Source of the DNA: Yuukianura sp. NJ FZ-2021 | Lineage: Eukaryota | NCBI GenBank assembly: GCA_046563655.1 | Contig: JAJCTO010000010.1 | Coordinates: 558,001 to 622,000, forward strand | Length of the DNA stretch: 64,000 bases | Direction of reading: 5' to 3' | In this document: piece by piece, positions 1 through 40,746 of the stretch | How the letters are laid out: each line of letters opens with the position of its first letter | Position numbering within the stretch: position 1 is the stretch's first letter | The notes under the pieces: model-generated | The model's input: the letters and a program-made list of their open reading frames with translations, nothing else | Database searches by the model: none | What the model was told of the DNA's origin: nothing | Made by a program: the position numbers and the translations under genes

Positions 1-473
1 TTTGTTTCGTGAACTAGCTCGTCCAGATTCCGTTCCGGATAAGAAGTTGGAAAGCAGCCACACTTTAGAAGCGATTCCACTAGGCAAGGAATATCACTGA
101 CGTTCACTGTGAGAGGACCACCGCTTCGAATAAGAAACACTTGGTCTGATTCGTTTTTAATGCAGTGGATTGGAAGAAGTGGCGTATCAAGTTTGTCTTT
201 CATTATTTGAATTTCCGATGCTGGTGGTTGTCCCAGAACTTTGAATAACTTCAGGAATCCGTTCTTGCGGTTTCTTGTCATGATTCTTTCAAAATGTGGA
301 AGATCATTCATCATTCTCCCAGCTTCGATGTACGCTTTAACTAGTTTTTCGACCACGGTCGGTAGTTCCTCTGCTGCTAGCAGAATGGAGTGTTCAGCAA
401 TCTTGATAGCGATGACATCTTCCATGTCACTAAATGGTGTTAAAACTTCCATATACTGTCTAAACCCCTCCAT
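1..473 (-). CDS. Hypothetical protein, open at the window edge (MEGFRQYMEVLTPF...)
   Basis: Manual minus-strand translation from the ATG at 473 has no stop before base 1. No recognisable motif. Confidence 0.35.
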   Translation of the reverse strand, partial: MEGFRQYMEVLTPFSDMEDVIAIKIAEHSILLAAEELPTVVEKLVKAYIEAGRMMNDLPHFERIMTRNRKNGFLKLFKVLGQPPASEIQIMKDKLDTPLLPIHCIKNESDQVFLIRSGGPLTVNVSDIPCLVESLLKCGCFPTSYPERNLDELVHET

Positions 474-530
474 GGTTATAGTTGTGGATTGAGACTGGTT
501 TCAGAACTAATTGATTGCTAGTCTCAAAAC

Positions 531-725
531 TCACTGTTTAAGTACTACTTGGACAACGTTTGAAATGCTATTTTGAAATTTTTCAAATTTTATTTTTGGT
601 TCAATAACTTCATGCTGTCTCTCAATTAATTCTCTAATCAATGAACTTTTTCCACTTTGCGTAGGCCCACTCAAAACCATTACAAATGGATGAATTAATT
701 CAGGCCTGAACTCCATCTCCTTCAA
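531..725 (-). pseudogene. Truncated N-terminus of a Polinton packaging ATPase (A32/FtsK-like)
   Basis: HPFVMVLSGPTQSGKS Walker A, closely similar to HPFVMTCAGPTQAGKS at 12766. Similarity stops after about 45 aa. Confidence 0.75.
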
Positions 726-2100
726 AGTTTGTGGTGCAAATGAACTATAGAGATCAACAACCCCACATAATATTTTGCAAAGTACAATTCACCAAAACAA
801 GTTTGAAATCATTATTAATCACTGTTTTAGTTGTGATGTTGAAAAAGATCGTACTTAATTCTTTGCTAAAAAACGAATTCAACTGGATGACGCTATCTCA
901 GTTCCTAATTCGAAAAAGATCGAATTTAGTTCTTGCAGAAACGAAATGAACGATATGACGTAATTGCAAGTATATATATCGCATCTGGACCATACTTTCC
1001 ATACCAGTTTATTTCCAGAGCTTACATAGCAAAGACTTTCACAACTAGTTCACGATGTCAAAACGCGCAACCTTGAGTAACAACTTTCCACCCAAAAACG
1101 ATTTTGCGCGCGTTACATTGAAGAAAATTTGATGTGCAAAATATGCAAGCAAACATTCTCTACTACCCAGGAATTAGTAGCACACAAGACAAATGTGAAT
1201 TGTGAAACATCAGAAACAATTCTTGACTCTTACCGTATTTTACAGTGTTGTGTCTGTGATTCTCAGTTCGCAACACATTTACTCCTTCAAGAACATCTAA
1301 ATCATCACCATTCAATCAACCTTCCCCTGGAACCGCAGTATGGATCAGGCTTGCAAGATCAAATTAATGTTGTGCCTGTTACCGATGCCTTGAGTATAAT
1401 ATCAAAATATCGAGCTGATATGAATGTGTTCGAATGTAATGATGAAATCTCTGAACTGGATTTTTATAACAGTGTGAAAGCGTCAATTTTCGCAGTCCTC
1501 CAAACCGATCTTACAAAATGGAAAAATGTTAAAGTGTTCTTTACGATGAATTGTAGGTTCATCAAAGAGGATGTTGCTGGAGAAGTCGCCGACTCAACAA
1601 TCGGAAAATTTACCTCCTTCGCACACCTTCTATTCAACGCGGCAAATATACAACAGGTTTGGTCACTAGTGTGTCAGCAGTTTTCTTCAAAAATTGAAGA
1701 CTTCACGAGTGAGCGAAGTGGCTGGGTTCTCGACAAAATTACAAAGTTTAAGCTGACTACTTGTTTGTATAAGCTCTCAAACGTCGAAACATATATTGAA
1801 ACTCCTTATCCTCTGTCTGAGTACTCCAAGGTTTTACTGAACATTGATAACAGTGTCGAGTGGCATGACAATCGACAAAACAAGTGTTTCTTGTGGTCAG
1901 TGTTAGCACACGATAAGATTGCAGGAGTGACAAATGCTAACAATAATCGAGCACGTTACGACAAAAGGGTTGCAAGTTATGTGAAACATATTGACAAATT
2001 TAATCTGAATGGGATTAAGTTTCCGATGACCATAAATCAGTTGCCCAAATTTGAGGAACAAAATCCTAATATATCTTTAACCGTTCTTGGGTATGATATG

Positions 2101-3529
2101 AGTCAATGTGTTGGGTGGGCAATTCCCCCCCCCCCCCTACCCTTTTTTCTTTTGCACAAAATGCTTTTCTTTTTGCACTTTTGTGCAACTTTTTATATTT
2201 GGTTTTTTGTCCATGCTCACTGTATGTTAAGAGTTTAATTAGTTTTTAAAAATAATTTTCAAAAATATTTTGCGGTTTTGTGGTTTTAGTCCAAGCACAT
2301 ACCTGAAAAATCCTCTCTTCTTTGCACTTTTATGCAACTTTTTAGTTTTTGTTTATAGCTTGGGCTTATTTTAAACTTGGTATTTAATTTGGTTTTTTAT
2401 TTTTTTTTGTGTTTGAAAATACTACTTTCCCGGAAGCTATCTTTCTCGGAAACTTTTTAAATAGTAAATTCTCAAAAATTTTTCCTTCTAAACATCTTTC
2501 AAAAATATTTTGAGATTAAGGAACGTCTTGAAGTTTGCGGTTTTTTAATTGCCAATTACTTCGTATTGCATTTGTCAATTAGAGTGTCCCAAAAAAAAAA
2601 CGTACGACAAGTTCAAGCAATGGGAACTTTTGACATTGTAAGTTGATTGACTCGTGTACAAAATACAAACTTATTTCCAATATAAACCTAATTTGCAAGC
2701 ACAAGGGCAATGGTGGGAGGTCTGCCTTCTAGCTTTTCGCAGAGTGAATAACGGGTCACTCACCGCAAAAGCATTACGTAACCATTTCAATGCTACAATT
2801 TGACTAGTCAGCGTTTCCATCTAGTTGCTTATGATCCGTGGAGTGTTGGTACGCAAGTTTATACGAAACCGAGTGCTCATTTTGGTATTGGTTTTTTTCA
2901 AAATCACAAATCTCACCGACTAATTTCTGCCGCTAGACATCAACCTCGTTTACTATTGGTCCGCTAGTCCTTCAAAACTACACATACTAGTTGTTTTGAA
3001 TGGGCAGGGAAATAGCTTTATCGCAAGTCAACTGCCCAAGGACGTTCAAATCCCTCGAGTTTGACGACCAAGTGCGTCAACCTGACTTCTGACTGGTCGA
3101 CGTGTTGTTGCCCCAGAGGGCGTGGCTAGTACAATATTGAAATTTGATTGGTCAAAATCCCAGCCCGTGTATCAATTTCAGCCAATTGGCGCCCAGCTCG
3201 CTTTTGATTGGTCGACTTGTTGCTGACCCAGAGGGCTTTGCCAGTAAAATACTGAAATTTGCTTGGTAAAATCCCAACCTGTAAACCAATTTCAGCCATT
3301 TGGCGTCCATCTCGCTTCTGATTGGTCGACGAGTCGTTGCATCAGTGGGCGTGGCCAGTACATTGCTGCAGTTTGATTGGTCAAAATCCCAAGCCCTATA
3401 CCAATTTTCGGCCAATGGGCGTGCAGCTCGCTTCTGATTGGTCGACATGTCGTTCAAAAATGGCCTAGTCCCACCAATGGGAGTGGCTGGTCGCAAAATG
3501 TTTTAAAATCCTCTGTCATTTTTTTCTAG
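2101..3529 (+). repeat. Left TIR of mini-Polinton 1, including ~115-bp CCAAT/GC-box tandem units at ~3090-3450
   Basis: Reverse-complement match to 7231-8588. GA(T/C)TGGTCGAC recurs at 3091, 3206, 3320 and 3436. Confidence 0.9.
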
Positions 3530-3787
3530 AAAGTGCAATAAAATAAACACGTGGGATCATAAAAAGTGGTCTCGAGACATCATTTGTTGCTGAACCCTGG
3601 CGTATATACAGCTTGCTGTGTGCGCCAGAACATTATAAACTGGCCAGTTTGGAAAACATTTAATCTTCACTGCTTTACCAAACCATACTCATTTGTAGTT
3701 TGACGAGCAACTGGAAAGGACGTGCTGGCAAAGCCGAAAGCAAAAGTAACCTCAAGGGTGTTTTTGACTGAGAGCGACACTGGTCCA

Positions 3788-4345
3788 ATGAATTCTGTAC
3801 AAGTTACGCCAAAGAATAGCAAGAAAACGAAAAACGAGGATGGAAATCAGGTGATGGGGTTCCTCTCAAATGAAGAATTGCAAGTTCTGGAATCGGCTAA
3901 TCGAAGAAACGCAAGAGTTGAGGATGACGATTCTGACGGACGGTCCAAGTTACCTCGCAAGTTGCAAAAAACGTCGCTGCAACATGGAAGAATGTCGCCA
4001 TTTGAACAGCATATCCCACACCAAATGTCGCCAAGTGACACAGAAACACGCAAAACATCGAAAAAATCACGCCGCAAAGGGTCAAAGTCTATGAAATTGA
4101 CGCGAAAATGAAAAGAAGGCGGAAGAAAAGAGGAGAGAATCGAATCCCCACGCTGTAGTGGAGCAGAATCTGATGCAGATTCAACAAAAAAGGACAAAAA
4201 ACATCAAAAAGTCACCCAAACTGACGTTGCAGGAAAGAAATCAACTAGAAAAACTTCAAAAAGGAAACCAAAAAGGGGGCAAACTGGACTTAAGTATGCT
4301 ACTTCGTACAAGAATGGTGCAAATGGTAGCCTGCTTCTGCGGTGA
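3788..4345 (+). pseudogene. Lys/Arg/Ser-rich basic protein (candidate virion core protein) with one in-frame TGA at 4109-4111
   Basis: The same frame continues past the TGA (KEGGRKEE...KKSTRKTSKRKPKRG) to a TGA at 4343. It sits upstream of the MCP, as the basic ORF 37093-37500 does in mini-Polinton 2. Confidence 0.45.
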
Positions 4346-4413
4346 AACCACTTGCCTTTACACATTTGTCATTAAGTATAGTAGAAACTAAAGTCTCCCC
4401 ACCTTTTGACTAC

Positions 4414-4449
4414 TATAAATTAGCATTATTAGCCAGCTTGGCGGCCAGT
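4414..4449 (+). promoter_or_regulatory. TATA box plus initiator-like core promoter upstream of the mini-Polinton 1 MCP
   Basis: TATAAAT at 4414 and CCAGT at 4445, about 31 nt apart, the same geometry as at 35708/35739 and 37470/37501. Confidence 0.45.
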
Positions 4450-4769
4450 CGGCATGCGAAAGCCGAGGTGACAACACCTCTCCGCCAAAAAATTGTGCAA
4501 AATTGTACGTTTAGTGAGCAGAGTTGTCTTCAAACGGTCGCCAATCGATACCCAAAAGCCAAATTTAATACACTTTTCTGTCAAAAAGTTGGACATTTGA
4601 ATCCAAACGGTCGCCAGTCGGCATCGGCACGTCTTAACGACCACATCTCTCGACGTATTTTGGACAACAATTGGCTCTACATTGTTGAGGTTCAGCGAGA
4701 TTTAGCAAATACCCCAACAATAGTCTCACAGACTCGCTTGACCTAAAAGCAGGCTAACTAACCACGGAA

Positions 4770-6938
4770 ATGGAGCTTACAGTTCCAATGCACTCGAAGC
4801 TGGTGGACACAAATGCCAAATTGGACTTGTTTTCCATGCCAGACACCGAAGTTTCTTGTTTGCTGGACAATTATCTCAAAGTAGAGTCGTACTATGCCAC
4901 AAAAGGAAATGAATATCCGATTCATTTTTCGTTTTGGCAAATGGCCTACCTGGATTTGTCGGATTCGTTTTTTAGATTTGTAGTTTCCATTCGTAAAAAA
5001 GATGGTTCGGCACTCGGTGACACAGACAAGGTTGCTCCGGAAAATCTGTTCTTTCACACATTTGTGGAAGATTTTAAAGTCGTTGTCAACAACACGCAAG
5101 TCGTGGCCCAGGGGCCAAGGGCATACCAGAGGTGGTAGCCTGCAACTATTTTCCCCAACCTGCCCCGCCTGCACTGCAGGAATTTTTAGCCTGCACGCCT
5201 GCAGCCTGCAAAATTATCGAAAATCGGCAGCCTGCACGCCTGCACCTGCAAGGCTCTTCGGCAGGCCAGCCTGCAGCCTGCGCAGGCTGCCTGCAGTTAG
5301 CCTGCAATTTTTTATACGAACTGTAATCTACGGAAATTTTAATATACACTTACAACTACTGCGTAAATTCGTTTGCGTATAATGGCAATTACTCAATTAC
5401 CCTCGATTATCTGTCGGTTGTCCTTTCCAAACACGTAGGGAGAAAAATTCCTAGTAATAAATTGTTTTACGACACTGCTACCTTACTTTTGGTTTGTTTA
5501 ACTTTTAAAAATTCTGGATCCTTGCACATAAAAAAATCCTCAAAAGTTATACTGTCAAATCTTGCGTTGCCTACACGGGCAAGTGTAACGCCAACTTTAC
5601 TTAACCATATTTCTGCCTCCGGATTCATTATTTATTGTTTAAAGGCCCTATAGTGCAACTAATGTGCAGCAAAAAGTTTGCATGTAGTTCCATTGACTTT
5701 AATTCTTCAACATTCCAAAGTAATTTTTCTATTCGTTTCTGTCTTTTCTTGAAGTTTCTGAGAATAAACTCTCAAAAAATCACAGCCCGCAGCCTGCAGG
5801 CGAAATGCAGGCTCCTGCAGGCGCCTGCAGAACATTGCAGGCCGAACCCTCCCGCCTGTAACATTTCCAAATAAAAACGTGCACGCCTGCAGCCTGCAAA
5901 AATCCACCGCAGGTTGAGCCCGCCTGCACGTGCTGCAGGTTGGCCTGCAACCTGCGCAGGTTTACCTGCGGGCTACCACCTCTAGGGCATACCCGTACGA
6001 GGCTTGGATATTTACTCAACTTCAGCAAGGGATTGGTTCGAAAAGCAGTACATTGTCCAGGGAAATTTATTTTCCAGGCAATGTTATGGATAACTTTGAC
6101 GACACGAACCCAAGCTTCAAAGCTCGACTTGAGCTGACAAAAGTAATCAATTTGAGATGATTGGACGTCCGATGCTTGGAATTTTCACTTCGCCGCGACT
6201 TTTCCCGCCAGGAACACGGTTCAATTTTCAAATTCAACGGACAAACCCAGAGTTTTGCTTGTGCGGACCATCCTCTACAACGGAATACAAGGTTGAAGTG
6301 GAGTGTGCAGACTTTTACGTTCGCCAATATCGTCTAAATGAAAAGTTGACTACTCAACTTCGCACCGCATTTGCAAAAAAGAAAATGGCATTGTATTCTT
6401 TTGACAACGCCGTCAAGTTCTCTACGTACCCGTTGGGGTCACCGAATTTGAAATTCCAAAAATTATGCCTACGGCAATTCGGCCAAAGCTCCTCTGCATT
6501 GCAATTACGACAAGCGAAGTCGTCAATGGCAAACTCGAAAAGTCACCGTTTAATTTCAAACCACATGGGATCAAAAACATGAAGCTCAAATTCGAAGGAA
6601 AGGGAGTTGTTTTTGAGGAAATGAACTTTGAAAACAAAAATTACATGCTGGCCTACAACAACATGTGCAAGTTAATTTCACATGGAACCGACGGAAACGA
6701 CATTTCATATGAGCAATTTGTAAAGGGCAATGCGATTTTTGTGTTTGACACTCAAAACTTGCGATCAGACACGTTCAACCCTGGAAAAATTGGACAACTT
6801 GCATTGGGCCTTAGTTTTGACGAAAAAACAAAGGAAGAGCTAATGGTTATCACCATTGCCGTGGAAGACGTTACACTGGAAATTGGAGAAGGCGGACTAA
6901 TGCGTTTCGCATCTACGAAAAGCATTTTTTTCAAGTAA
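4770..6938 (+). pseudogene. Polinton-type double-jelly-roll major capsid protein, interrupted by a hAT MITE and two frameshifts
   Basis: KLDLFS, YLDLSDSF, APENLFFHTF, RAY|PYEAW across the MITE, SPFNFKPHG, GNDISYEQF and GNAIFVFD. Colinear with the MCPs at 37646 and 23669. Frameshifts at ~6145 and ~6420-6460. Confidence 0.88.
5127..5984. mobile_element. hAT-type MITE (858 bp)
   Basis: TIRs CAGAGGTGGTAGCC / GGCTACCACCTCTA. 8-bp TSD GGGCATAC (5119-5126, 5985-5992). Many subterminal GCCTGCA repeats. Confidence 0.92.
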
Positions 6939-7230
6939 TTTTTTTTCAACTTAAAATTTCAAAGCGTTCCTTCATATGTATTCCAATTACAATACTTTAT
7001 ACAATTCATAATCTTGTGTAATGTTTGGCATAAGGTTTGCTTGAAAATAAAAACCAGCATCATTAAAGCTAAGCAAAACCAATAGTCTAACCTTGGATTT
7101 ATTTAAAACTAGTTTTTAAGCGAATCGTTGAGACAGCGGAGTATTTCTGAGCCACATTAAGTTGGGTTTTTGTGGACCGGCTGTGGTTTGCATCTCATTT
7201 TTTCATGATTCCGCGAGTTTGTTGCATTCA

Positions 7231-8588
7231 CTAGCTAAAAAATGGCTGAGGGTTTTGAAACATTTTGCGACCAGCCACTCCCATTCGTGGGACTAGGCCA
7301 TTTTTTGAACGACATGTGGACCAATCAGAAGCGAGCTGCACGCCCATTGGCTGAAAATTGGTATAGCGTTTGGGATTTTGACCAATCAAATTTCAGCATT
7401 GTACTGGCCACGCCCACTGGGGCAACGACTCGTCGACCAATCAGAAGCGAGTTGGACGCAAATTGGCTGAAATTGGTATACGGGTTGGGATTTTGACCAA
7501 TCAAATTTCAGCATTGTATTGGCCACGCCCACTGGGGCAACGACTCGTCGACCAATCAGAAGCCGGGTTGACGCCCTTGTTTTTAAAATCCAGCGATTTG
7601 AACGTCATTGGCAAATCAAATTGCGATAAACGGATTCCAACGCCCATTTTTGAGGAAGGGCAGTTTTGAAAGACTCGCCGACCAATCACAGGCGAGGTTG
7701 ACGTCTACCGGCAGAGATGAATCGGTGAGATTTGTGATTTTGGACAAAACCAGTACTAAAGTGACCATTGGGTGTCGCAGAAGCTTGCGTACCACCAACT
7801 CCTCGGGTCATAAATAACTAGCATAGTAGTAAGTGTACTGTGTCGGAAACGCTCACCAGTCAAATTGCAGCATTGAAATGGTCACGTAATGGTTTTGCGG
7901 TGAGTAAAACGTTATTCACTTGGCGAAAAGCTACTGGCAGACTTCCCGAAAATGCCCTCGTGCTTGCCAATTACGGTCAAGTTTGTAATTTGTACACGAG
8001 TCAATCAACTCGAAAGGTAAAAGTTTTAATTGCTTACGTTTTTCGTTTACGTTAACATTTTTCGTGCGTTCTAATTAGCAATCGCGACACGGAAGTAATC
8101 GGCAATTAAAAAACCGCAAACGTGCCAGACGAACCTGTAAGTTAGGTCTTGTGTCATCTCAAAATATTTTCGACAGCTGTTTAGAAAGGAACCTGATGTA
8201 TAGAAAGAAACATTTTTGAGAATTTACTATTTAAAAAGGTTTCCGAGAAAAATAGCTTCCGGGAAAGTAGCATTTTCAAACACAAAAAAAAATTAAAAAC
8301 CAAATTAAATGCCAAGTTTAAAATGAGCCCAAGCTATAAACAAAAACTAAAAAGTTGCATAAAAGTGCAAAGAAGAGAGGATTTTTCAGGTAGGTGCTTG
8401 GACTAAAAGCACAAAACCGCAAAATATTTTTGAAAATTATTTTTAAAAACTAATTAAACTCTTAACATACAATGAGCATGGACAAAAAACCAAATATAAA
8501 AAGTTGCACAAAAGTGCAAAAAGAAAAGCATTTTGTGCAAAAGAAAAGGGGGGAGGGGGGGGGGAATTGCCCACCCAACACATTGACT
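7231..8588 (-). repeat. Right TIR of mini-Polinton 1
   Basis: Inverted copy of 2101-3529. Mirror ORFs (3152-3496 vs 7242-7496; 8454-8726 vs the end of 1129-2238) confirm it. Confidence 0.9.
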
Positions 8589-11500
8589 GATATGGATGTA
8601 AAACACTTGTCCGTGATCGAGGAAGAGGATCCAGCTGATGAGATTGAAACAAAAATAAGAAACTTTAAATTTATCCAGAGCACCCTCTCTATCATGTACA
8701 ACTCCAAAGAACAAAAAGTCATCCATGTGGATTTGTTGTGCTTAATGAATGGAAACAATTATCATTTCTTACTAATTCGAAGTCTGGAGGGCTTGATGCG
8801 TCACCCGCGCAATAATCATGTGAGCAGGATATGTCGTAATTGCCTGCAAAACTTTCAGAGCGAAAAGACTCTAACAAGCCATCAAACGCTCTGTTCAAAG
8901 TTTGAAACCCAGAAAGTCCGATATCCGAGAGGAGAATATGCAACAATGAAATTTGATAAGTGGAGTAGAACTCAACAAGCACCATTTAGATTTTATGCTG
9001 ACTTTGAAGCGTTTCTTTTCGAGTATGATTTCAATAACTTACCAGAGATGGAGCGACGAAAAATGAAGGCCCAGTTTTTTCAAAAGAAACCAAATGATAA
9101 TCCTCCCACTGCACAACGAACAAATATTCATACGGCTTGCGGTTTTGCATGGGTTTGCGTTGATTTCGAAGGAAACAGAAGGTGTAGGAGATACTATCGT
9201 GCCCAAACAGATGAAGACGAAGTTGCGTATGAATTTGTCAAAAGTATAGCCGACTATAGCTATGAGCTTATGGAAGAACTAAACGAGTATGAAGACGAAG
9301 CTCCGTCTATGTTGGAAGAAGTAGCGACCGAAGAATTGTTGGCAGAGTTTAGAGAGAAGAACGAGTGCTGCTTTTGTAAACTCAAGTTTTGTATCAATGA
9401 AACAGTTGTTCGACATCACTCTCACTTGCCACCATTTAACTTTGTTGGTCTCGCTCACAATTCTTGCAATTTAAAAGCTCAAATCAAGAAGAATTTTCCC
9501 GTCTTCATCCACAACTTTGGGTCTTACGACGCTCATTTCATCATACACGCCCTAGGGAAACTGAAGCAGGATAATGTGATAAGCCAGCCAGAGGTTATAG
9601 CTAAAAGCTCGGAGAAGTTGCTGTCTTTAAGCTTGAAACTGCCATTTAGACAAATTGAAACTGCACACGAGCTTCTAAGTAACGAAAGGGTGGGGAGACG
9701 AGTGAGGGGAGGAGGAACAATTCGGTTTTTGGACAGTCTAGGCTTCACATTAAAGTCACTGGAAAAACTCGTTCAAGTGATGAGAGCAGACCCAAACTCT
9801 AAGTTTCAAATTACTAGACAAGAATTTCACAGGGAAGTTGCCAACGGATGCAACATTGATTTACTGTTTAAAAAAGGGTCTTACCCTTATACACTCATGA
9901 AGTGCATTAAAGACTTTGAAAGAACATCTCTGCCATGCAAAGAGGACTTTTACAACGACCTCACGGAAGAAGCGATACAAGACGACGTTTACGAGCACGC
10001 ACAGGAAGTGTGGAAAAATTTTCACATTAAGCATATGGGCGAATGGCATGATTTGTACGTTAGACTTGACACTGTATTGCTAGCTGACGTCATGGAAAAC
10101 CTGAGAAAAATAATGTTGGATTACTATGAGTTGGATCTTGCGCACTACTTTTCTCTCCCGATGATGTCAATCGACTGTGCTCTGAAACGTAGTGGAATTA
10201 CGTTAGAGCTGATTAGCGATCCAACCATGCATTGCTGGATAGAACAAGCTATTCGAGGTGGATTTGTTAGTGTTGGAATGCAGAGAGCAGCTGCAGCGAA
10301 TAACCCATATATGCAGGAAGAGTTTGACCCAACCAAACCCAATAGTGACATCCTATATGAGTTCACCTTTACCGGTTGATCGATTTCATTGGCTCGATGA
10401 GGAGGAAATTGGAATGATTTCTGGAGACCTGGGTCGGTTTCTAGAAAATCAAGATACTTACAGGGCATATCTTAGAAGTTGACCTTGACATCAATCCGGA
10501 TTTGCATGACAAGTTAAACGAGTACCCTCCGGCTCCCGTAAAACGTAAAATTGAAGCCAGTGAACTTTCAGCATCATATCAAAAACCCTTAATTGAAGAC
10601 CTTGGAATCAATAGTGGAATTTATAAGGTTGACAAACTTGTAGCAGACTTGCACAACAAAAAAAACTACATCTTTCACAGCGAAACTCTAAGAGAATACT
10701 ACAAGCTGGGTGTGAAAGTCTCCAAAATTCATCGCGTACTTTCGTTTAGACAAGCAGCGTGGATGAAGCCGTTCATAGATTTTAACACTGACATGAGGAA
10801 AAAGGCGACGAGCGACTTTGAAAAAGACTTCTGGAAATTGTTAAACAATTCCGCATTTGGAAAAACAATCGAGCAAGTTCGCGATAGACAAAACGTGCGA
10901 ATCGTTACAGACAGACGAAAGGCGCTGTACTATAACAAAAAACCTACTGTACAAAATATTGTCGTTGTGAATGAATCTACTCGTTTGTTTATGATGAAGA
11001 AAAAATCAGTCAACCTAAACAAACCAATTTTCACCGGTGTGACAATCTTGGAAATCGCCAAAAAAATAATGTACGAAATGCATTATCAAGGTATTAAAAC
11101 TCTCTACGGAGATCGAGCAGTTTTACTCTATACAGACACAGACTCACTCAGTTACAAGATTGACACTGAAGACGTTTACAAGGACATGATGACACATGGC
11201 CAACTTTATGATATGAGTGAGTATCCAGAGCAAAATCCTATGTTCGGATTGTTCTATGACGTCACTAACAAAAAGGTTTTGGGGAAATTCAAAGACGAGT
11301 TCGCCGGTACTGTGATTACCCATGTGATTTGTCCAAGACCAAAAATGTACTCTATTCGCAGTGTAGGACTTCACAAGAAGGGAAAGGAGTGGGTGTGGAA
11401 AGAGTCATGCTCAAAAAAAGTTAAAGGTATTACCAAAGCGGCGGTAAAAAATCAAATCAAATTCAAAGACTTCTCGAATGTTCTGGAACAAAACATACAA

Positions 11501-11792
11501 ACAATGGTCAGCATGCGTGGACTTCGAAGTGTGGAACATCGTATTTTTACAGAAGTGATCCGAAAAAAGGCTCTTAGTGGGTTGGATACAAAACGTTTTG
11601 CAATTGACAGCGTCAATACTCTTGCGTTTGGCCACAAGGACATACCACTCTACAATATGTAGTCTAAAATAACGATTTAGAACTTGCGTTGTGCGGTGGT
11701 TCAATCGATAAGCATCAGATTGAGCCATCGCACAACTTTATGTTTGTAAAGTTCGAATCCAGTTTGGAAATTAACGTTTTATTTCATTGAAT

Positions 11793-12702
11793 TTAGTAGT
11801 TTACTTTTAACAATTGCTGCTCATAAAATCCGCCAGGTATTGGCACTCCTTTCAAATCCTGAAGAGAATAAACTCGAGGAATTGTTTCACGAACTTTGAC
11901 GACTGTGTAAATCTCCTTATTATAGTTTGCAGTATATCCTTTTTCGAATGTTTTCTTGTTTCTCGCAATCAAAACCCTGTCTCCCTCATAGAATTTTGGA
12001 GGATATATAACACAATTCGTTCTGGATACAGCGTATTGTACACTTTTGCTTCGTTTGCTTTTGTGACTTCGTTTGGCTTCATTTTTATGCTGCGATGATA
12101 CGAATTGTTGTATAAATTTTCAAAATCATGAAGCTTATTTACAAATCGCTTGGTGTTATTGTGTGTCATGTTCCAAACAATGTTCGAATGAATCTCTCGA
12201 TGACAACACTTTTCAAAGGCGAATAACTCCAAAACAGTTTGATTCCTAACCCGCTTATGTATTTTTCCATTGTTTTGTTTAAGAACTCTCCGCCCTTGTC
12301 AACGTTTATTCGTTTTGGTATGGCACCGCTTCGTTGAAGAATTTTCTTTAACGCGTTTGTTACAGTCATAGCAGTGTTATTTGGTATAGCTTCAATCCAT
12401 GCTTGCTTGGAAAATACGTCAATGATGACGAGGAGGTACTTCTTTTTGAAGTTGTAATTTGCAAATTTTCTAATATCCTTCGGATCCATTGCGTATTGTT
12501 CATGTATTCCGTTGGAGTATACCCTACGACGCAAAAATCGTCGTGTCACAGGGTAATGCAAGGTGTAGGCGGGCACAGACTTTAAACGCTGCTGTGCAAT
12601 TTTCCGTCTCGCTTTGCCCCCGTTGGGCAAAAAGTTTGACAGTCCGCTAAAGCTGCCAGAGTTCTCCAAATTCGTCCAACGCTCTGTCACCTTCCTTTCC
12701 AT
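11793..12702 (-). pseudogene. Polinton retroviral-like (rve, DDE) integrase A, frameshifted
   Basis: GSFSG, YTLH, YLLVIIDVFSK, VDKGGEF, IERFIRTL, NNSYHRSIKMKP, FEKGYTANY and GFYEQQL, spread over shifted frames. Confidence 0.9.
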
Positions 12703-12765
12703 GATGAAGAGTGATAAAAGCTGACAGCGCAAAGCAATATTTAATCAGTCAGCAAGCAGCGAAAC

Positions 12766-12979
12766 ATGGAATTCGACTATCGTCTTCGACATCCATTTGT
12801 GATGACATGTGCAGGACCTACTCAGGCTGGAAAATCAACCCTAATTGAGGAGCTGATAAGAAGAAAAGATGAACTAATATTCCCCAGGATTGAGAAAGTA
12901 ATATTCTGTTACAATGAGGATGAACCTGCTTTTGCAGATGGATTAAAAAAGCAGCTCGGAGACTCGCGCATACATTTCC
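12766..12979 (+). pseudogene. Polinton packaging ATPase, N-terminal part, truncated by the Helentron end
   Basis: HPFVMTCAGPTQAGKST Walker A, head-to-head with integrase A. The frame breaks at the 12980 terminal motif. Confidence 0.85.
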
Positions 12980-13236
12980 AAACAAGGTAGGGCGATGCTC
13001 AAGGGTTGAGCATAGGTCTTCTGGAGTAGACTAGTGATGCGACATAAAAAATGGAGTTGGCAATGGACGTTACAGAATTGAAATGGCAATTTATTTCAAA
13101 ATATACGAGAATTAAACTAATGATTAGATCACGTACAAATACAATTCAAATGAGATAAGGCAAGCTAGTGACTGAACTTTATGAATTACTATTATAGAAT
13201 TACTAAACCTACGAGCAAGATTTCACGAATAGCAAT

Positions 13237-15800: not shown

Positions 15801-18560
15801 TTTATTTGTTTATTTGCCACTGATACCCTGCATACAGGTAATTACATCGTGGATGCTTGTAGTAAAGTTAAGAAGTAATGAGTACTGTAATGAATGAAGT
15901 ATTGCGATATTCGTTAGTTTAAGTTAAGGTGTAAAATGTGAAATTAAATTAAAAGAAAATATGAGCGAATGGAATTGATTTAAGTTAATTAATTTTTTTT
16001 TAAGATAAGTTAAAATTGTAAAGGAGCGATTCTAGGCTATCATCTAGAGAATTCAAATAGTTAAGTTCGGAGATTTGCTGCCGCTCCACGAAGTACGCTG
16101 CAATAGTTTTACGCAATATGGAGGGACTTGTACTGGTTAGTAGTGAACGATATTCCACAGGTAACAAATTAATGAGACGCGACACGGTTGGAACGAACGA
16201 TTTCGGGTGGTATTTCCTGCTATTCACAACGTATGTACCGGATCTGGTAGATGTAGTGTTGGACGAGTGACACGAAATTTCTGAGGTGATGGATTCGAAG
16301 TACGGAATTTTGTTACAAACCAAGTTTCGGTATACAAGTAGTTGTTCTACGATGCCGATGTTGGTTGGAATTAGCCAGTTTAGAGTAGAGTTGATTTTTG
16401 AACGAACACAGTCTTTTTTTCGCATTTTGAAAATGAATCGTATGGCTCGTCTGAATATTTTGTTGACGCAGTTGAAATTAGACTTGTTGCAGTTAGACCA
16501 AAGTATGATCATGTAATTAATAATTGGAATAAAGTAAGAAGTGATCATTAGTTTTCTGTTGAACTCGGACAGAAGGTCTTGAATAGGGTAAAAAGACCAC
16601 AAGATTCTGTTGCACTTTTTAACCATTTCACTTATGTGTTCACACCAAGATAATGAGTTGTCCAGTATCAGCCCAAGTGTCTTGAAGGAAGTTACACTTG
16701 TGATTGCAGTATTTGCAATATTTAGGGTGATCTGGCCAATGTTTTTGACTGTGTTTTTGCTTCCAACCAGTAGCACCTTCGTTTTTTCAATATGGATGTT
16801 GTGATGGTTGATCTTCATCCATTGAACGATGTTGGAAATGACTGCTTCCGCTCTCAGAATTAATTGATCAATCAATTTAGGGTCCCCTCCAATGACGATG
16901 TTATTGTCATCGGCGAATAAAATTGGAGTTCCATCATTGATTATCCATGGCAAATCGTTGATCATGATTGAAAATAGAAGTGGGCCTAGGATGGATCCCT
17001 GGGGTACTGAGAGTATTGTTGGTTTTCGTTGTGAAAAATTCCCATTGATGTTTACTTGCTGAGTCCTGCTGTTGAGGTAAGATTCAAACCATGAAGTTGA
17101 AACATTGTACCACTTCAGTTTTTCAATTAAGATATTTTTGTCAACCGTGTCAAATGCTTTTTGCAAATCAAGTGAGATGATTAGGCAGACCTCACCAAGA
17201 TGTAATTTAGAATAAACTAACTCCGTTAGAGCCAATTGAGCCATGGGTGGTGGAATGGTGTTGTCTGAGTCCAAATTGATTTTTATGTAATAGTGAGTGA
17301 CGACTGAGAAAAGTTTTCAGTTGCTGATGTGCGAATTTTTCACACAGTTTTGCGATGAGAGGTTGTAATGATATTGGCCGTGTTTCAGAAGGATGTTTGG
17401 GGTTGCAAACTTTTGGCAATGGGATCACAACAGAGTTCTGTAGCGAATTTGGGAAGACTCCACTTGTAAAACTTTGGTTAATAATGTGAACTAATTGATT
17501 TGAAATGTTTGGTGCTTCAATGCAGTGAGAAAGAATCCAATTTGAGAGCCCACACTGATCTTTAGTTTTCTTGAGTTTGTTCTTGGTAGTCTTCCATGTT
17601 TTGATCAGTGTCGATGTTGTGATTTTTGTTAGGTTGAATTTTTCAATGGGTGTAATGATTGCTGGCGGTTTGACCGGAAGCGCACTTGCAATAAATTTTG
17701 GAGTTGTAATTGAAATATAGTAGTCATTAATTTCATCAGGAGTGAAGCTAAGACTCACTTTCGCTTTTTGTGCGGTTGGGCGAATTTTGTTTATTGCTTT
17801 GTGAGGGCCAAGCTTTTTGATCGCTATATTAAGTGTGTCTTTCATGTCTAATTTCACATTCACCTTCACTAATTTTTTTAATTTCTTTAGCTCCGCATTC
17901 TGAAGGTTTGACAGATTTGAAACTTTCGCCAGAAGGTCACGCTCAGCGATGAGAGTTTTTGTTTTACTTGAGATCGTAAGTGGAGTCGTGCGTTGGGTAA
18001 TCGATAATTTCTTTACTTTAATTGTATCACGGAAATTAGTGCTAACTTTGGAAATAAATTCTTGAAACTGCGAGTCCAAGTTGCTTTCGGTGTCACTGAA
18101 AGTAGTAAAGCTGGACTTTAGGCCAAATTCTTCGTAGTCAAAGTTGGTGTAGTCTTCGTAAATAATGTTCACTTTCGGGAGTTTGGGTTTCACTAGGTTG
18201 ACTGTAATTAGTGTAGCACTGTGATCTGAAATACTGGGATCAAATACATTTGTGGTTTCTATGAGGCTAGGATTGTTAGTAAAAATTAGATCAAGTGTTG
18301 AATTGCCTCTGGTTGGGTCAGTGATGAGTTGATTAAAGATGGAGGTAGTTTGTTTGAAATTGGCTTGACACTTGGCTGGAATGTTAATTTTGTTTAAGTT
18401 GAAGTCACCCAGAACAAAACAATTTTTTTTGGAGAGCGCAAGCTCTTTAAAAAGTTCAGTCATTGAGTTAAGGTCTGCATCAATAGCCTTTGAGGTGTAA
18501 TTTGGAATTCTGTAGACACTAGAAATGATGATGGATTTGTTGTAATTAAGTTTGAAAAAA
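15801..18560 (-). mobile_element. 5'-truncated LINE (CR1/L2-group) with partial APE endonuclease and RT, frameshifted at ~17250
   Basis: GDFN, TLDLIF and SDH (endonuclease). RPISL, DLQKAFDTV, VPQGSILGPLLF, FADD and LGLILD (RT). Short AATAAAC-like repeats at the 3' end. Confidence 0.9.
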
Positions 18561-18897
18561 AAATTCCCAACTTGAAGGCTAAAGTTAAACTTGAATTTTT
18601 TCACAAAATACCAAATGCATAGAACCGAAAAAGGGTAATTACTTAAAAATTCTTCGTAGCGTTTATCTAAGAAAACTTGAAGTTGGAATATAGAATCGAG
18701 AAATGCTTATTACTTTCGTATGTTCATATTACTTTCGTAAATTTCCTTTATGAAAACTGATTGGAACTAATAAACATTTTTATTGCAGTAAAATTCCTAC
18801 AGAACTTTGTATATAAATTGCTTCATTTGGAGAATGATTGTTTGATTAGTATCACTGCGATGAAGTTGAATTAATACAGATGGTAGTATCGATGCAC

Positions 18898-21791: not shown

Positions 21792-23240
21792 ATGGATAAC
21801 TTTTATGTTCATCTTCAAAGCGACTCATCCCAAGGATTCTATCCTTCAAACACCATTTCTAATTTCCGTAATCATCTCAGTCGACCAATTACATTAGACG
21901 ACAATGCATACGAAGTAGCATTAGCTGAGTGTAGCTACACATTCAAAAACCCTACAATTGGCACAAATCAACACGTGCTTAGTATTAGATCAATTCACGG
22001 AATCGAAAACCCAGATCCAGAAAATGGTTAAAAAATTCATAACAATTTACCGAGCCATGGGATTGACAGTTCTGGAGTTCTCTATGTTGACAAAGAAAAA
22101 AAGTTAATTTCGTCTATCTTGTGGGATTTTTGTGCTTCACATGGATGTGACCTCCCGTACGGCACAACACTTTTCAATCAAGAAAATAAAGACTTTGGGA
22201 AGCTAAATATGATTGTTAATATAACACAAACAAAGCTGGCAGCAAGACAAAAAATCACAAATATTCATGAATTGTGTAAAGAACTTGCTAGTTTACTTAA
22301 ACCATTTGCCATAACAGTGGAGACGGATGAAGTCCAGTTTAATAAAAATATTCTCACAGTTCGGATAATATACGACAAACCACACACTCAAGAAGCAATC
22401 GTGTTTACAAGCAAAATCCATGAGATTTTAGGGCAACATGGAAGTGGAATGATTTACAAAGATAAAAAAATTGTTAATCTTATGCATTCGATTGACATAC
22501 CAATTAATATCGAACAATATGACCAAATGCTTTCTGTAAATGTCATTGATCACGCACTCAGATTATATCATCTAGAACAATTGACACACTTACAATCAGA
22601 TAACAAATTCAAAATGTCAAATAAAATGTTTTGGAAAAGTGTTGCGAAATCTTCCCCTGTTCCACTAAACATAAGTGAATATGAAGACAAAATGATAACA
22701 TATTCTATGAAAGCAGAGCACGTCTACCTAGCAGCTAAATGTAGCTCAATTGAAGACATGATAGCTGCAATAAATAGCTCAGCAATTGGATATAAATTTC
22801 AACTCAATGAAAATCATATAACATACACCATTGACTCTGCCAAATTCAAGGGTGAAGACATTCAGTTCAATAGCTACTGTGCAGCTGTTTTGGGTTTAAC
22901 CCACACTAAAGTAAAAACTGATGATGAAGGAAATAAAGTTTTCGTTGGGGAATACGTTCCAGCTTTCAACTATGGTAAAACACGAATGTTTATTTACACT
23001 GATATTGTTGAAAATCAGTTTGTAGGCCACCAGATGGCTCCACTACTAAGAATCGCCAACTACGAAGGAGAAAATAACAAAGTTGCCACCATTGATTTTG
23101 CACATTTGCAATACATTCCTGTTAAAAAAACTTACATTGAATCCATCCATGCATTTATAAGAAGTGAATCTGGAGATACTTTGCCATTTGATACTGGTAC
23201 ATTCTCAGCTACACTTCACTTTCGTCAGAGAAGATTTTAG
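21792..23240 (+). pseudogene. Polinton minor capsid (penton/PX) protein with a long central insertion and one in-frame TAA at 22029
   Basis: N-terminal FYVHLQSDSS..FYPSNTISNFRNHL...YEVALAE. C-terminal FIYTDIV...VGHQMAPLLR...YIPV...LPF...TLHFR. Confidence 0.85.
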
Positions 23241-23676: not shown

Positions 23677-25926
23677 ACGATCTCGAGAAAACCCCAGAGT
23701 TGACTTTTTACGCAGTGAAACTGATTTGTTCACAGAACCAGGATACGATATCTCAATACAACATTCAACAAGTGTTGAGTACTTTCCCTTAAATAATATA
23801 AGTGATAAAACGGCGCCACTCACATTTTTTATTCAAGGAAATGACCTACAATACCTCGACTTTGCAGAATCCAAACTTTACATCCGCTGTAAACTTACAA
23901 AAGAAAATGGAACAGATTTGGAAAAAGTAACAGACGCTGCTGTGCTTACATACGCACCAATTAACAACTTTTTACATTCAATGTTTGACAAAGTTACGAT
24001 ACACCAAGGTGGGTAAACAAACAAAAGCTACAGAAGGTTATCCAGCACCTCGGGTTTTTCAATTTTGTGCAAAAATTTTCAAAAATGAAACCGGTTCATC
24101 TTGACTCCATTTCTATTGCAATTTTAGTCTTTTTTTTTCTTTTTTTTTTTTATTCAAAAATTTTTATAAAAAAAAAATCATACAATCCCATCAAATAATT
24201 TATTATGTACTTAACTAATGAGAGGAAACGGGTTTCCACTCAACAAAAACTGATTAGCTTTCCCTGTATTCCTGAATCTTCCCTTGCGGAGTCCTTGAAT
24301 TACACGCTTGTAGCGTATCCGTGATGCGCAAATCCTGCTCGAATGTGCTTGACGCAGGACTTTGACTTCAGCCTTGAGGTTTCTCCATTTGTCACGATAA
24401 GAGGAACACTTCTTCTTGTCACTGCGCGTCGTAGGTTGGGCTAAACCAAATTGGGATACACTATTAGGATCAATTGAAAATTAAAATTTACAAAATTCTT
24501 ACCCTCAAGTCGTCAAGCATTGGAAAGTGAGATGAGCAGATTCGGGAAGAGTCACTGAACTTTGTCGAACAAATACTCTCCCATTCAGGTCGAATTGCTT
24601 GTGCTTTCGGCACTCTGAAGAACTTAAGTTTTGTAAACCCAGACTGCACTTTGTATGTATTTTTACGACAATCTGGCATGGAGCAACACAGCACCATCGT
24701 TAAATCTACCTGATACTCGAATTCTTAATTCAAATCAAGTCGAGCAGTTGGAAAAAATTGGAAGAAAATGCGTAAACCGAATCGGAGGAAAATTGGAGGA
24801 AAGGCGTAAACAAAATTGGAGGAAAATTGGAGGAAAAAATTGTTTTCTTCCAAAAACTTGAAACAGGGAGGTACTGGACAACCTCTTGTAGCAAATACAA
24901 TCGGTTGCTATAGCAACCTTGCGATACACTTGAATGAAATGGAAATAACAAGCAAATGTAGCTACTATCCTCAGAGAGCCTACATTGAAAGCTTCTTGGG
25001 ATATAACAAAAATTATAAAAAATCGATAGGAGAAGCTGCAATGCTAACAAAGACGGAATCAGAATTGAACACAACTGATTTTTGAAGGATTTTTGAAACG
25101 CAAAGACTTGGTTGATGGTAGCAAAGTTTTTGAAGTTGCAGGAAAATTACATACAGAACTTTTTAGCCAACCACGATTTCTGATTCCTGGAATTGACGTG
25201 AGAATTCAACTACATAAATCAAGCGATGCATTTTGTTTACAATGCGTAGGCTCAGCCAAGCAAAACATAAAGTTTGCAATGTTGGAGGCCAAAATGATTG
25301 TCCGAAAACATCAATCATTACCATCCATTCAGCTTGCGCATTTAAAACATATGGAAAACGGTCATCCGGTAGTATATCCAAATCGATTTGTGGATATAAA
25401 GTCTTATACTCTTCCGAGTGGTACTTTGTTTAATACGAATGAAAACATTCTGACTGGTCAAATCCCAAATCGTCTGATTTTGGGGTTAGTATCGAGTACT
25501 TCATTGCATGGGACCTGCGAAACAAACCCTTTGGCATTTAGTCATTTTGACGTTAGTCAAATTAATGTAAAAGTCAATGGAGAAAATATCGCGGAACATG
25601 TTGTTGAGATGGATTCAGCAGAAAACAGGAATGTGTTAGCCTACTTGTCACTATTTGAAAATTTAGGCCTAACAAATTGTGATGCTGGAGTTGACATAAA
25701 GTTAGACGAGTACAAAAACGGCAAAGCTTTACATGTTTTTAATTTAAGAAATATAAAAGATACGTTTTGCCTTCCAAAATTTGGAAACGTAGCAATAACG
25801 ATAAGATTTAAGGCAGCGACAACTGAATCAATCACCGCAATTGTTTATGCAGAGTACGAGTCAACACTATACATTAATCGAGAAAAACAAATTTATCTTA
25901 AAGATTATGCAAAGGAATCAATATGA
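23669..25926 (+). pseudogene. Polinton major capsid protein (PY), interrupted by a P-element derivative and frameshifted at ~25082
   Basis: ETDLF, YLDFAESKL, APINNFLHSMF | YYPQRAYIE, FSQPRFLIPG, GQIPNRLILG, NPLAFSHF and YAEYE. The apparent start codon reads ACG at 23669. Confidence 0.9.
24005..24921 (-). mobile_element. Non-autonomous P-element/THAP-family DNA transposon (917 bp)
   Basis: Ends CAAGGT / ACCTTG. 8-bp TSD CGATACAC (23997-24004, 24922-24929). Subterminal inverted repeats at ~24028-24051 and ~24868-24892. THAP zinc finger ORF 24488-24697 (CCSMPDC...FFRVP...W...RICSSHF). Confidence 0.88.
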
Positions 25927-27445: not shown

Positions 27446-28579
27446 ATGGAGCAGGAAATTTTGAATTCCTATACTGATACAAAAAATGTTGGATCATTTA
27501 CTGGTGCTGATAATTTTTACAAAACAAATAAATTTGCTGGAAAAAAAAAGATTGCAAACATACTGCTAGGAGCGAAAGGCTATAGGCTCCACCATCCTGC
27601 AAAAAAATTTGTGCGTAAAATTGTTTATTGTCCAGCATTGTACGACCAAGTAGGAGTAGATTTAATTGATATACAAAAATACAAAAAGTCAAACTATGGA
27701 AAACGTTAGATTTTAGTGGTGGTGGACTGCTTTAGTAAAATGGCATTTATGGAAGCATTAAAAGATAAAAAATGTGAAACAGTACGTTTGGCAATGGAAA
27801 ACATACTTGATCGTAACAAAATAAAATTTTCATACTGTCAAAGTGATGGTGGGAGTGAATTTGTAGGAAAAGTTATGAAAAAATGGTACCTAGATAATAA
27901 TATTACACATTTTGTAACTTCCAGTCCTATTAAAGTTAGCTATGTTGAGCGATTCATTCGTACCATATTTTCTCAAATATCACGCTATATGACGCAGAAT
28001 AACACAAAACGTTTTGTACACAAACTAAGAGATTTTGAGCATTCATACCAAAATTCTTATCATCGTTCCATTGGTACAACACCGGCTTCAGTGACCAAAA
28101 ATAATGAGTGTGAAATTTGGGAAAAATTGTATGGAAAAGTACGGAAAATTAAAAAATCAAAAATCTTCAAAGTAGGAAACAAAGTAAATATTAAAATTAC
28201 AAAAAAAAATTTAGCAAAGGTTATTCTCCCAATTTTGAAGATAAGGTATATAATACAGTGAGCGCCACCTAAAACCATATACCCCTATTTTGTTTCCGTA
28301 GAAACAAGTTGAAAATTTGGTAAACATGGGGGGAAAGGTAACTCAAAATGTGAATTTTTAGTTAACTCTTATGATGGAATTTTTTGCAACTCGCACAGTT
28401 TCAATGGTTTTCCCTCCACCGTTGCGAAATTAAACAATTTGGGGTGCATGGTTTTAGCTGGCGCTCACTGTATAACCAGAGTCATACAAACAAGTCCTGT
28501 GACGTATGAAGTTTCAGATGAAAAGAATAGTATATTAAGTAGAAAATTTTATCAACAAGAGTTAGTTTTAATTGAATAA
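27446..28579 (+). pseudogene. Polinton integrase B, with an in-frame TAG at 27707, a frameshift and a MITE insertion
   Basis: GSFTG, VDLIDI, VVDCFSK, QSDGGSEF, VERFIRTI, NSYHRSIG and FYQQEL. Confidence 0.9.
28256..28470. mobile_element. Tc1/mariner-type MITE (215 bp)
   Basis: TIRs CAGTGAGCGCCACCTAAAACCAT / ATGGTTTTAGCTGGCGCTCACTG, flanked by TA on both sides. Confidence 0.9.
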
Positions 28580-35584: not shown

Positions 35585-35688
35585 TTTATACACAAAATGG
35601 TCATGCTTATTTGTCGGTGGTTACATTGCGACTGTCCCGTCTTCACCCCTTGCCACGCGACCCCTGCATTTTTTGCAGTTTTTTACGG

Positions 35689-35743
35689 TGACGTCATCGG
35701 CTGTGCCTATATAAGGCCGTGACGTTGCCACAAGCGGCTCAGT
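35689..35743 (+). promoter_or_regulatory. Core promoter of the mini-Polinton 2 minor capsid gene
   Basis: CRE TGACGTCA at ~35689, TATATAAG at ~35708 and TCAGT initiator at ~35739. Confidence 0.6.
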
Positions 35744-35835
35744 GTTTCACTAGCTTCTGCGTCGGTAACATTACCTTCTCCTACAAAAGTTTAAGTGAAA
35801 GTGTTAATTTGTTATTGTTCAACTCGCCGTCAGCA

Positions 35836-36906: not shown

Positions 36907-37092
36907 ATTGTCCAAAAACCAGTTATTAACGGCCACAAAAGACAAAATCTGTTCAGTTGACGTCTGACTTGCGACCAAGCAACACGAAAACAGTGCAAAA
37001 CATTGTAAAATTTACACCAAAACCCTTAAAAACGTCGTCAGTATCAACTTTGTGCTCGTTGAAGCAACATCTAGTGCATTTTTTGTGTAAAA

Positions 37093-37500: not shown

Positions 37501-37505
37501 TCAGT
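37470..37505 (+). promoter_or_regulatory. TATA plus initiator upstream of the mini-Polinton 2 MCP
   Basis: TATAAAA at 37470 and TCAGT at 37501. Confidence 0.6.
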
Positions 37506-37645
37506 CTGCGTCTGAATTTCGACGAGTAAACACGTGTCTAGTGCGCAGTGCTACCATAAAATTTACGCGTTAAACCTTGGAAATAGTGCTCAGTCGTCAT
37601 TTGGCAACCGTCGGAGCAACATCTCGTGCGTGTTTTTGTGCTAAA

Positions 37646-40533: not shown

Positions 40534-40746
40534 GTCGTCGTCGTGGTAGTGGTGGTGGCGGTGGGTGGGAGGTGGTGGTTCTGTTTGTGGGAAATTATTC
40601 AGCACACGACTGTAGGCAACCGACAGAAATTTGTACAATTTATTCAGTTGCAAACAGAAAAACTTTTTTTTTTAATGATGTAACTTTGTATATGCAATAA
40701 AAAATCCATTCCTCGTTTCACAATTTTTCACCGTCGAAAAAAAAAT

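Follow-up and report, generated by a model that had tools for sequence, protein, structure and literature searches.

A 64-kb stretch of the genome of Yuukianura sp. NJ FZ-2021 (contig JAJCTO010000010.1, positions 558,001 to 622,000; referred to as the window, whose coordinates are used throughout) contains a compact mobile element at positions 2101-8588 (element 1). [quoted passage not shown] Element 1 has the ends of a Polinton and encloses only part of the capsid module, namely a basic, core-protein-like open reading frame (ORF) and a gene for the major capsid protein (MCP). It is thus a non-autonomous Polinton/Maverick derivative. A second element with a related plan (element 2) is found in the same window. 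All features are listed in Table 1.

Ends and insertion site of element 1

Element 1 has a length of 6488 bp, and its tips read AGT...ACT (AG...CT). The terminal inverted repeats (TIRs) comprise ~1.4 kb each and are imperfect. Identity between the arms is 96% in the outer 334 nt, 87% in the inner 368, and 80% when 1304 aligned columns are compared. Tandem units 114/115 bp in length are found in the inner part of both arms (3.2 copies in the left arm, 2.2 in the right one), which results in offset alignments of the arms. The 24-nt terminus is present at each end of the element, in inverted orientation, and nowhere else in the window (chance expectation 0). The element is bounded by a perfect 6-bp target-site duplication (TSD), GATATG. 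TIRs, an AG..CT-type motif and a perfect 6-bp TSD together are the end and integration signature of Polintons/Mavericks. In PMC8097293, Mavericks are described as having AG..CT/AGT..ACT end motifs and perfect 6-bp TSDs. The original prediction, made from the letters alone, had recognized the AG...CT ends, the ~1.4-kb TIRs and the TSD and had attributed them to Polinton-type integration. Termini and hexamer can be read at both ends, and the attribution agrees with the Maverick description.

Element 1 is a discrete mobile unit inserted into the pPolB gene of a larger Polinton. The two halves of the host ORF are in register across the duplicated hexamer. Logan contigs from four public runs (two organisms, two studies) were aligned to positions 1-12000. 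One contig from run X2 links position 2100 to 8637 with 42 other letters between them, a net loss of 6494 bases. This number equals element 1 plus one copy of the TSD, so the contig represents exactly the site without the insertion, from a different copy or allele of the host Polinton.

Gene content of element 1

Two genes are located between the arms, the Lys/Arg-rich basic ORF and the MCP gene. At E<=0.001, no Pfam family was found for any of the 41 stop-free ORFs of at least 60 aa within the element. Upon translated self-comparison of the window, nothing in element 1 resembles the window integrase, the ATPase pieces or the flanking pPolB. The rve integrase family has no match inside the element, and neither integrase gene of the window resembles its sequence. 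No penton gene was detected at 2101-8588 by tblastn with ORF A of element 2 and the penton of the large Polinton as queries. The genes by which an autonomous Polinton is recognized (pPolB and an rve integrase) are thus both missing, and the predicted gene content (a basic ORF and an MCP, with no pPolB, integrase, ATPase or protease) was borne out. Searches of Pfam and PHROGs with the MCP, penton, basic ORFs, pPolB and a putative protease returned no significant family.

This copy of the element is dead. The MCP gene is interrupted by a MITE (miniature inverted-repeat transposable element), which separates its first two pieces. The last three pieces, all downstream of the MITE, run in three different frames, so that the gene has at least two frameshifts. 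The basic ORF is also split. The copy therefore cannot itself be a working satellite. The claim that the element keeps its own capsid gene, like a satellite virus, is correct as to the presence of the MCP and fails for this copy as to its function.

When the MITE is subtracted, element 1 measures 5622 bp, in line with the ~5.6 kb given originally. Copies without the MITE exist, because contigs that skip exactly 866 bases (5117->5984) were found in all four runs and thus in both organisms. These copies are ~96-97% identical to element 1. The longest contig of this kind (record 11 of run X2, 2228 nt, likewise ~96-97% identical) extends from 3467, in the left arm, across the basic ORF to 6551, in the MCP. 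The junction between TIR and genes is therefore common to other copies. In runs X1-X3, the contig depths summed for the MITE itself are in the thousands and greatly exceed those of the adjacent sequence (contig depths were not used as copy numbers), and the MITE probably belongs to an abundant family. Some further joints were set aside. Those with sides of less than 30 letters (587->2243, 597->3987, 2910->6916, 3905->6694) are flagged as unreliable by the tool and were not used as evidence. Two opposite-strand joints (2594/8063 and 3542/7203) are explained by one-arm TIR contigs that align to the other arm.

The basic ORF has positional analogues in element 2 and in two metagenome contigs described below (L001, 1185-1670; L011, 4241-4714, between penton and MCP). 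The basic ORFs of element 1, element 2 and L001 have no detectable sequence similarity to each other, and their equivalence is one of position and composition only. The small ORF of L011 is extremely rich in Lys, Arg and Gly and has several GG runs. It may resemble adenovirus core protein precursors.

Table 1. Features of the window, beginning with element 1 and its insertion site
Feature	Position	Strand	Remarks
Left TSD copy	2095-2100	none	GATATG, read directly; same as 8589-8594
Left TIR of element 1	2101 to ~3565	+	starts with AGTCAATG; C-run near the tip; tandem units and putative GC-box/inverted-CCAAT modules in the inner part (3086-3454)
Basic ORF of element 1	3782-4391	+	Lys/Arg-rich; split over two frames (3704-4111, 4101-4391); no Pfam family
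MCP pseudogene of element 1	4770-6938	+	double jelly-roll family; located by tblastn with the MCP of element 2; pieces 4767-5126, 5996-6142, 6133-6411, 6423-6926
MITE in the MCP of element 1	5128-5983	none	856 bp; 17-nt inverted ends; 10-bp duplication AGGGCATACC at 5118-5127 and 5984-5993
Right TIR of element 1	~7200-8588	-	ends with CATTGACT; 115-bp tandem units at 7308-7563
Right TSD copy	8589-8594	none	GATATG, perfect 6-bp match to the left copy
Host pPolB, upstream part	1081-2100	+	interrupted by element 1; C2H2 zinc-finger matches at the N-terminus
Host pPolB, downstream part	8595-11662	+	own break between 10379 and 10445
Element 2	34481-40533	+	6053 bp; ends AGCTAATGG...CCATTAGCT; TSD GTCGTC at 34475-34480 and 40534-40539
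TIRs of element 2	34481 to ~35585; ~39477-40533		~1.1 kb each, 592 nt of it 100% identical
Penton gene of element 2	35836-36906	+	two in-frame stops
Basic ORF of element 2	37093-37500	+	between penton and MCP
MCP of element 2	37646-38969	+	one frameshift and one in-frame stop
First Polinton set, ATPase	3-788	-
First Polinton set, pPolB	1081-11662	+
First Polinton set, integrase	11793-12744	-
Second Polinton set, ATPase piece	12745-12990
Second Polinton set, penton-like ORF	22032-23240
Second Polinton set, MCP	25069-25926
Second Polinton set, integrase	27710-28261
LINE (long interspersed nuclear element)	16000-18706	-	RVT_1 and endonuclease matches; inserted between the two Polinton gene sets

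Capsid identity of the MCP family

The MCP pieces of element 1 are 47-70% identical to the MCP of element 2. Among 1.84 billion proteins, a phmmer search with the unbroken 316-aa part of the latter returned 1596 representatives (E<=1e-3), most of them of ~430-440 aa. The best match (P0002) is an intact protein of 437 aa with 45% identity. The fold was modelled on the intact homologue from L001, not on the broken gene of element 1. The AlphaFold2 model (108-row alignment) has a mean predicted local distance difference test (pLDDT) score of 92. Foldseek relates it to the double jelly-roll MCPs of PBCV-1, Singapore grouper iridovirus (SGIV), Sputnik and mavirus (E 1e-15 to 1e-12, template modelling (TM) score ~0.6). 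In BFVD, a Cotesia bracovirus protein is on top, followed by MCPs from giant viruses (nucleocytoplasmic large DNA viruses, NCLDV), virophages and adomaviruses. The capsid gene of element 1 is, as judged from homology and from the predicted fold of its relative, a Polinton-type double jelly-roll MCP.

A total of 80 metagenome loci were searched by tblastn with pPolB, ATPase, integrase and penton from the window. In many loci, a match is found beside the MCP, while short contigs contain the MCP only. The gene order of the family in these loci is (pPolB) - ATPase - integrase - penton - MCP. When the MCP alignment was used as a profile against PDB sequences, adenovirus hexon was the only match, and a weak one (E 0.043). 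A scan of IMG/VR with the MCP profile gave 87 pattern matches, none of which was a confirmed relative.

Relatives with a reduced gene set

(a) Element 2 has its own TSD and carries a penton gene, a basic ORF and an MCP in this order, which is also that of L011. The penton gene was called via its L011 homologue (25-32% identical). The model of the L011 penton (pLDDT 73) ranks the pentons of mavirus, Sputnik and adenovirus first (E 5e-8 to 1e-4, with a low TM score of ~0.3). A penton fold is thus predicted for the gene of element 2 through this homologue. An ESM Atlas search with half of the element 2 penton returned only unnamed clusters and was uninformative.

(b) The arms of element 2 differ in identity along their length. 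The identical part comprises the inner 592 nt (34993-35584 and 39477-40068). Over the outer 500 nt, identity is only 76-97%, and homopolymer runs contain indels. This unevenness may be due to gene conversion, to slippage or to an error in the assembly.

(c) On the metagenome contig L001, which is 3944 bp long, inverted repeats reach both contig ends. This contig codes for a basic ORF and an uninterrupted MCP of 436 aa, and for nothing else. In another locus (L022), a decayed MCP of the same clade is followed, after ~1.2 kb, by a cytochrome P450 gene.

(d) The unique core of element 1 (without the MITE) comprises 2768 bp and that of L001 ~2.9 kb; the core of element 2 comprises 3891 bp, including the 1.1-kb penton gene. 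The nearest full-length relative is L011, which has an internal MCP, followed by ~4.5 kb of ORFs and then by pPolB.

(e) Uninterrupted MCPs of 436-444 aa are encoded by L001, P0002, P0003, P0155 and P0156. P0002, P0003, P0155 and P0156 are further intact members of the MCP clade and come from short contigs, that of P0155 (437 aa) having 5991 bp.

Shared cis features of the two elements

When aligned over their first 28 nt, the two elements have 18 identities and one gap (our own count). The motif TGGNNNGGNAATTCCC occurs at all four ends of the two elements, and once more in the window, with one mismatch, in an unrelated gene. All 15 occurrences of GACCAATCA in the window are inside the TIRs of the two elements (0.72 expected). 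The same is true for all eight occurrences of the bipartite module GGCGTGGC-N17/18-TTGATTGGTC, which is found twice per arm and points inward (0 expected); it does not occur in 103 loci. Just inward of both left arms, TATA-like sequences precede the first gene, and the bipartite module is located just upstream. The remainder of the TIRs cannot be aligned between the two elements, so that the conservation of the module suggests a function. We take the module to be a putative GC-box, followed after 17-18 nt by a putative inverted CCAAT box, and presumably a host-type promoter/enhancer of the capsid genes. A scan of IMG/VR with the shared terminal motif gave 23 matches, none of which is clearly at a contig end except on one 1.3-kb contig; these were taken as chance matches.

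Phylogeny and selection of the MCP

A maximum-likelihood tree was computed from 55 MCP rows. For the broken MCPs of the window, translation was continued across the breaks, each of which was marked by an X. The tree contains 29 rows labelled as lying with an integrase or a penton gene (28 metagenome loci and the MCP of the large Polinton in the window). The MCPs of elements 1 and 2 are sisters (support of 99 in the Shimodaira-Hasegawa approximate likelihood-ratio test, SH-aLRT), and they are joined by L001 and P0002 (97). This group is part of a seven-row clade (100), the stem of which has 0.72 changes per column. All 29 rows with integrase or penton context fall outside this clade, and L011 is the nearest full-length element. 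The three clade members for which the context is known (element 1, element 2 and L001) are all reduced and have only the capsid module.

Amino-acid identity is 54% between elements 1 and 2, 46-50% from these to L001, and 25-28% to L011; element 2 and the large Polinton of the window share 21%. The MCPs of element 1, element 2 and L001 are ~21-28% identical to Polinton MCPs that are encoded beside integrase or penton genes. The original prediction had called for a comparison of selection among MCP copies. Between elements 1 and 2 (427 codons), the proportion of synonymous differences (pS) is 0.78 and thus saturated, and that of nonsynonymous differences (pN) is 0.27, a depth too great for a numeric dN/dS. 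Since synonymous sites are saturated while pN is low, the MCP appears to have been constrained for most of a long divergence. The codon comparison indicates that it evolved under purifying selection.

The host Polinton and neighbouring elements

(a) The ESM Atlas clusters nearest to the host pPolB bear the name DNA polymerase, and 14-27% of their members carry PF03175 (score 0.98). By tblastn, it matches the polymerase genes of the full-length metagenome Polintons L011 and L015. The host ORF presumably also has the usual family B polymerase motifs. A phmmer search of its C-terminal part against the PDB gave no matches. The Pfam family DNA_pol_B_2 is silent on positions 8589-11662 of the window and on 10585-13302 of L011 even at E<=1, although the Atlas neighbours carry DNA_pol_B_2. 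Annotation pipelines based on Pfam would therefore miss this lineage.

(b) In runs X1 and X2, contigs have 36 extra letters at 10352-10357 that are missing from the host polymerase gene of the window. This copy of the gene thus has a small deletion of its own near the ORF break.

(c) Positions 1-30200 contain at least two decayed Polinton gene sets side by side. Both integrases (12166-12744, reverse strand, and 27710-28261) match rve.

(d) At the end of the window, ~17 kb are bracketed by direct repeats (45484-46290 and 63203-64000), the translations of which are 88-95% identical. This region codes for a matrixin-type metalloproteinase (ORF 48324-49760, Peptidase_M10, E 4e-43), gag-pol ORFs (RVT_1, RNase H, integrase), an envelope-like ORF of 721 aa and two ORFs with a dUTPase domain (59134-59742 and 61385-62281). 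Positions 45484-64000 may represent a very large long terminal repeat (LTR) element with captured genes.

Origin and possible lifestyle of element 1

Element 1 has neither an integrase nor a polymerase of its own and was therefore inserted in trans, as the original prediction had proposed. That it was moved by a Polinton integrase is well supported. An autonomous Polinton would have supplied integration and probably also the protein-primed copying of the ends. We favour the view that element 1 belongs to a long-lived, helper-dependent lineage which has only the capsid module, and we consider the chances of this to be about even. It is favoured because a single MCP clade unites three diverged members of the same plan and has no known full-length member, because the MCP is constrained and intact members exist, and because the MCP is internal in L011, so that independent origins would need two deletions each. 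In such a lineage, the helper Polinton would supply polymerase, terminal protein function, integrase, ATPase and protease, and working members would supply their own coat protein. One step further, working members of the clade could be genuine satellite viruses that live off Polintons in an animal host, and they would have TIR-bounded genomes of 5.6-6 kb that code only for their own coat (MCP, with or without penton, and a core-like basic protein), a strong host-type promoter in the inner TIR, and a borrowed polymerase, ATPase, protease and integrase. We consider this rather unlikely.

Several points weigh against a capsid-only lineage. The copy of element 1 is a pseudogene, and penton and MCP of element 2 are also broken, so that the local copies moved or persisted without working capsid genes. 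The tree was computed with a "quick" method and with SH-aLRT as the only support measure. The context is known for only three clade members, two of them from one genome, while four rows within the clade (P0002-P0005) are from contigs of 1.5-3 kb. A 148-aa N-terminal fragment (P0159), 60% identical to the L001 MCP, is encoded on a contig of 10,869 bp, which might represent a parent of full length. The purifying selection on the MCP may date back to full-length ancestors. Finally, gene content is uneven, the penton gene being kept in element 2 and absent from element 1 and L001, which fits independent deletions as well as a stepwise reduction. The original prediction had named heterogeneous deletion breakpoints as a sign of ordinary deletion derivatives, and the uneven distribution of the penton gene partly approaches this.

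It is accordingly quite possible, if short of an even chance, that element 1, element 2 and L001 arose separately and fairly recently from their own full-length parents, by internal deletion or end-copying. The capsid genes would then be passive baggage near an end, and there would be neither a lineage nor a satellite lifestyle. The broken capsid genes and the variable gene content fit this scenario. In element 2, 592 nt of the TIRs are 100% identical and yet the genes are disabled, as expected if dead copies are still mobilized. In several metagenome loci (e.g., L009, L015 and L024), the contig stops just past the MCP; if the MCP is the last gene before the repeat, one deletion would suffice. 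Two of the weak joints (2910->6916 and 3905->6694, with sides of 21-26 letters) could be further-deleted copies, but they are of the type flagged as unreliable. Points against separate origins are the internal MCP of L011, the MCP clade, in which no full-length member was seen and all three members of known context are reduced alike, the unique cores of near-equal size once the penton gene of element 2 is considered, and the uninterrupted MCPs of five relatives. A full-length parent of element 1 is not present in the window, where the MCP of the large Polinton is only 21% identical and no other terminus matches. Within the window, element 1 is thus not a near-identical deletion copy, in agreement with the original prediction. 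That prediction had also offered one segment of a multipartite virus. In such a virus, a partner segment with matching termini would contribute pPolB, integrase and ATPase, and the two would be packaged together or separately. Capsid genes without replication genes would be expected from this, and the size of 5.6-6.1 kb with long TIRs is reminiscent of the ~6-kb TIR-bounded segments of bidnaviruses. The proposal found no support, since the window has no such partner with pPolB or integrase: the 24-nt terminus is restricted to the two ends of element 1, and the shared terminal motif to the ends of the two elements, apart from the mismatched copy in an unrelated gene. Moreover, element 1 integrates like a transposon, with a TSD. 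We consider a multipartite virus very improbable. The region is rich in repeats and nested elements, and a mis-join of Polinton fragments or a chance inverted repeat might be suspected for this reason. Such an artefact is excluded for practical purposes by the independent runs, which contain the empty site as well as contigs that lead from the TIR via the basic ORF into the MCP. The perfect TSD, the host ORF in register on both sides and the same plan in element 2, with its own TSD, also speak against it.

Relation to known systems

(a) Elements 1 and 2 resemble autonomous Polintons/Mavericks (polintoviruses, adintoviruses) in their AG..CT termini, 6-bp TSD, long TIRs and capsid families (MCP, and penton in element 2). 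Autonomous Polintons, however, have ~15-20 kb and code for pPolB, integrase, ATPase and protease, whereas elements 1 and 2 have 5.6-6.1 kb without these genes. Unlike in autonomous Polintons, the TIRs make up ~35-45% of the element.

(b) Like other non-autonomous DNA transposons (internally deleted copies, MITEs), the elements have kept their ends, depend on a transposase or integrase in trans, and occur as defective copies in several places. Such transposons are, however, near-identical to their parent and contain arbitrary remnants. The lineage of element 1, in contrast, would keep a virus structural gene under purifying selection, with the same module in three diverged members.

(c) Satellite viruses (satellite tobacco necrosis virus, virophages and capsid-forming phage-inducible chromosomal islands) depend on a helper for replication, code for their own coat and have a genome smaller than that of the helper, as working mini-elements would. 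The likeness is one of logic only, and the local copies are dead.

(d) Bidnaviruses and transpovirons (the latter named in PMC5499653 and PMC8877843) are small, linear, TIR-bounded replicons of ~6-7 kb that are tied by descent or lifestyle to pPolB elements. Bidnaviruses, however, have a parvovirus-like capsid protein and carry pPolB on one segment, and transpovirons are not known to have a capsid gene. Neither is known to integrate with a Polinton-type 6-bp TSD.

(e) Non-autonomous relatives of Polintons are barely described. Repbase may contain entries for such elements. Searches of full-text literature gave no description of capsid-only Polinton derivatives. In PMC5499653, Polintons by definition encode a protein-primed DNA polymerase (pDNAP) and an integrase, so that element 1 is not an autonomous Polinton, and the term "non-autonomous polintons" is applied there only to Tlr1. 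PMC3014272 reports that non-autonomous Polinton copies are apparently absent from the anole, and PMC8504770 refers only to fragmented Maverick copies. According to PMC8097293, Maverick genome size is constrained (~17 kb) and Maverick particles have not been observed.

Significance

If the reduced elements are independent deletion products, element 1 is a tidy example of nested, decayed Polinton derivatives. Termini of ~30 nt and a putative promoter module in the TIR make up a small, defined cis system with which the integration of Polintons and their protein-primed replication could be studied.

It is widely argued that Polintons are not only transposons but also viruses. If element 1 belongs to a capsid-only lineage, a coat gene was kept under selection after all replication and integration genes had been lost. 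This would be difficult to account for if capsids were not produced and did not contribute to the spread of the elements, and it would be indirect evidence for Polinton particles in animals. If working members are satellite viruses, their own capsid gene would allow them to build particles for a small genome, and they would be a eukaryotic counterpart of the capsid-forming phage satellites. The insertion into the polymerase gene of a helper would then be interference of a parasite with a parasite. A capsid-only lineage would add a layer of helpers and satellites to the biology of Polintons.

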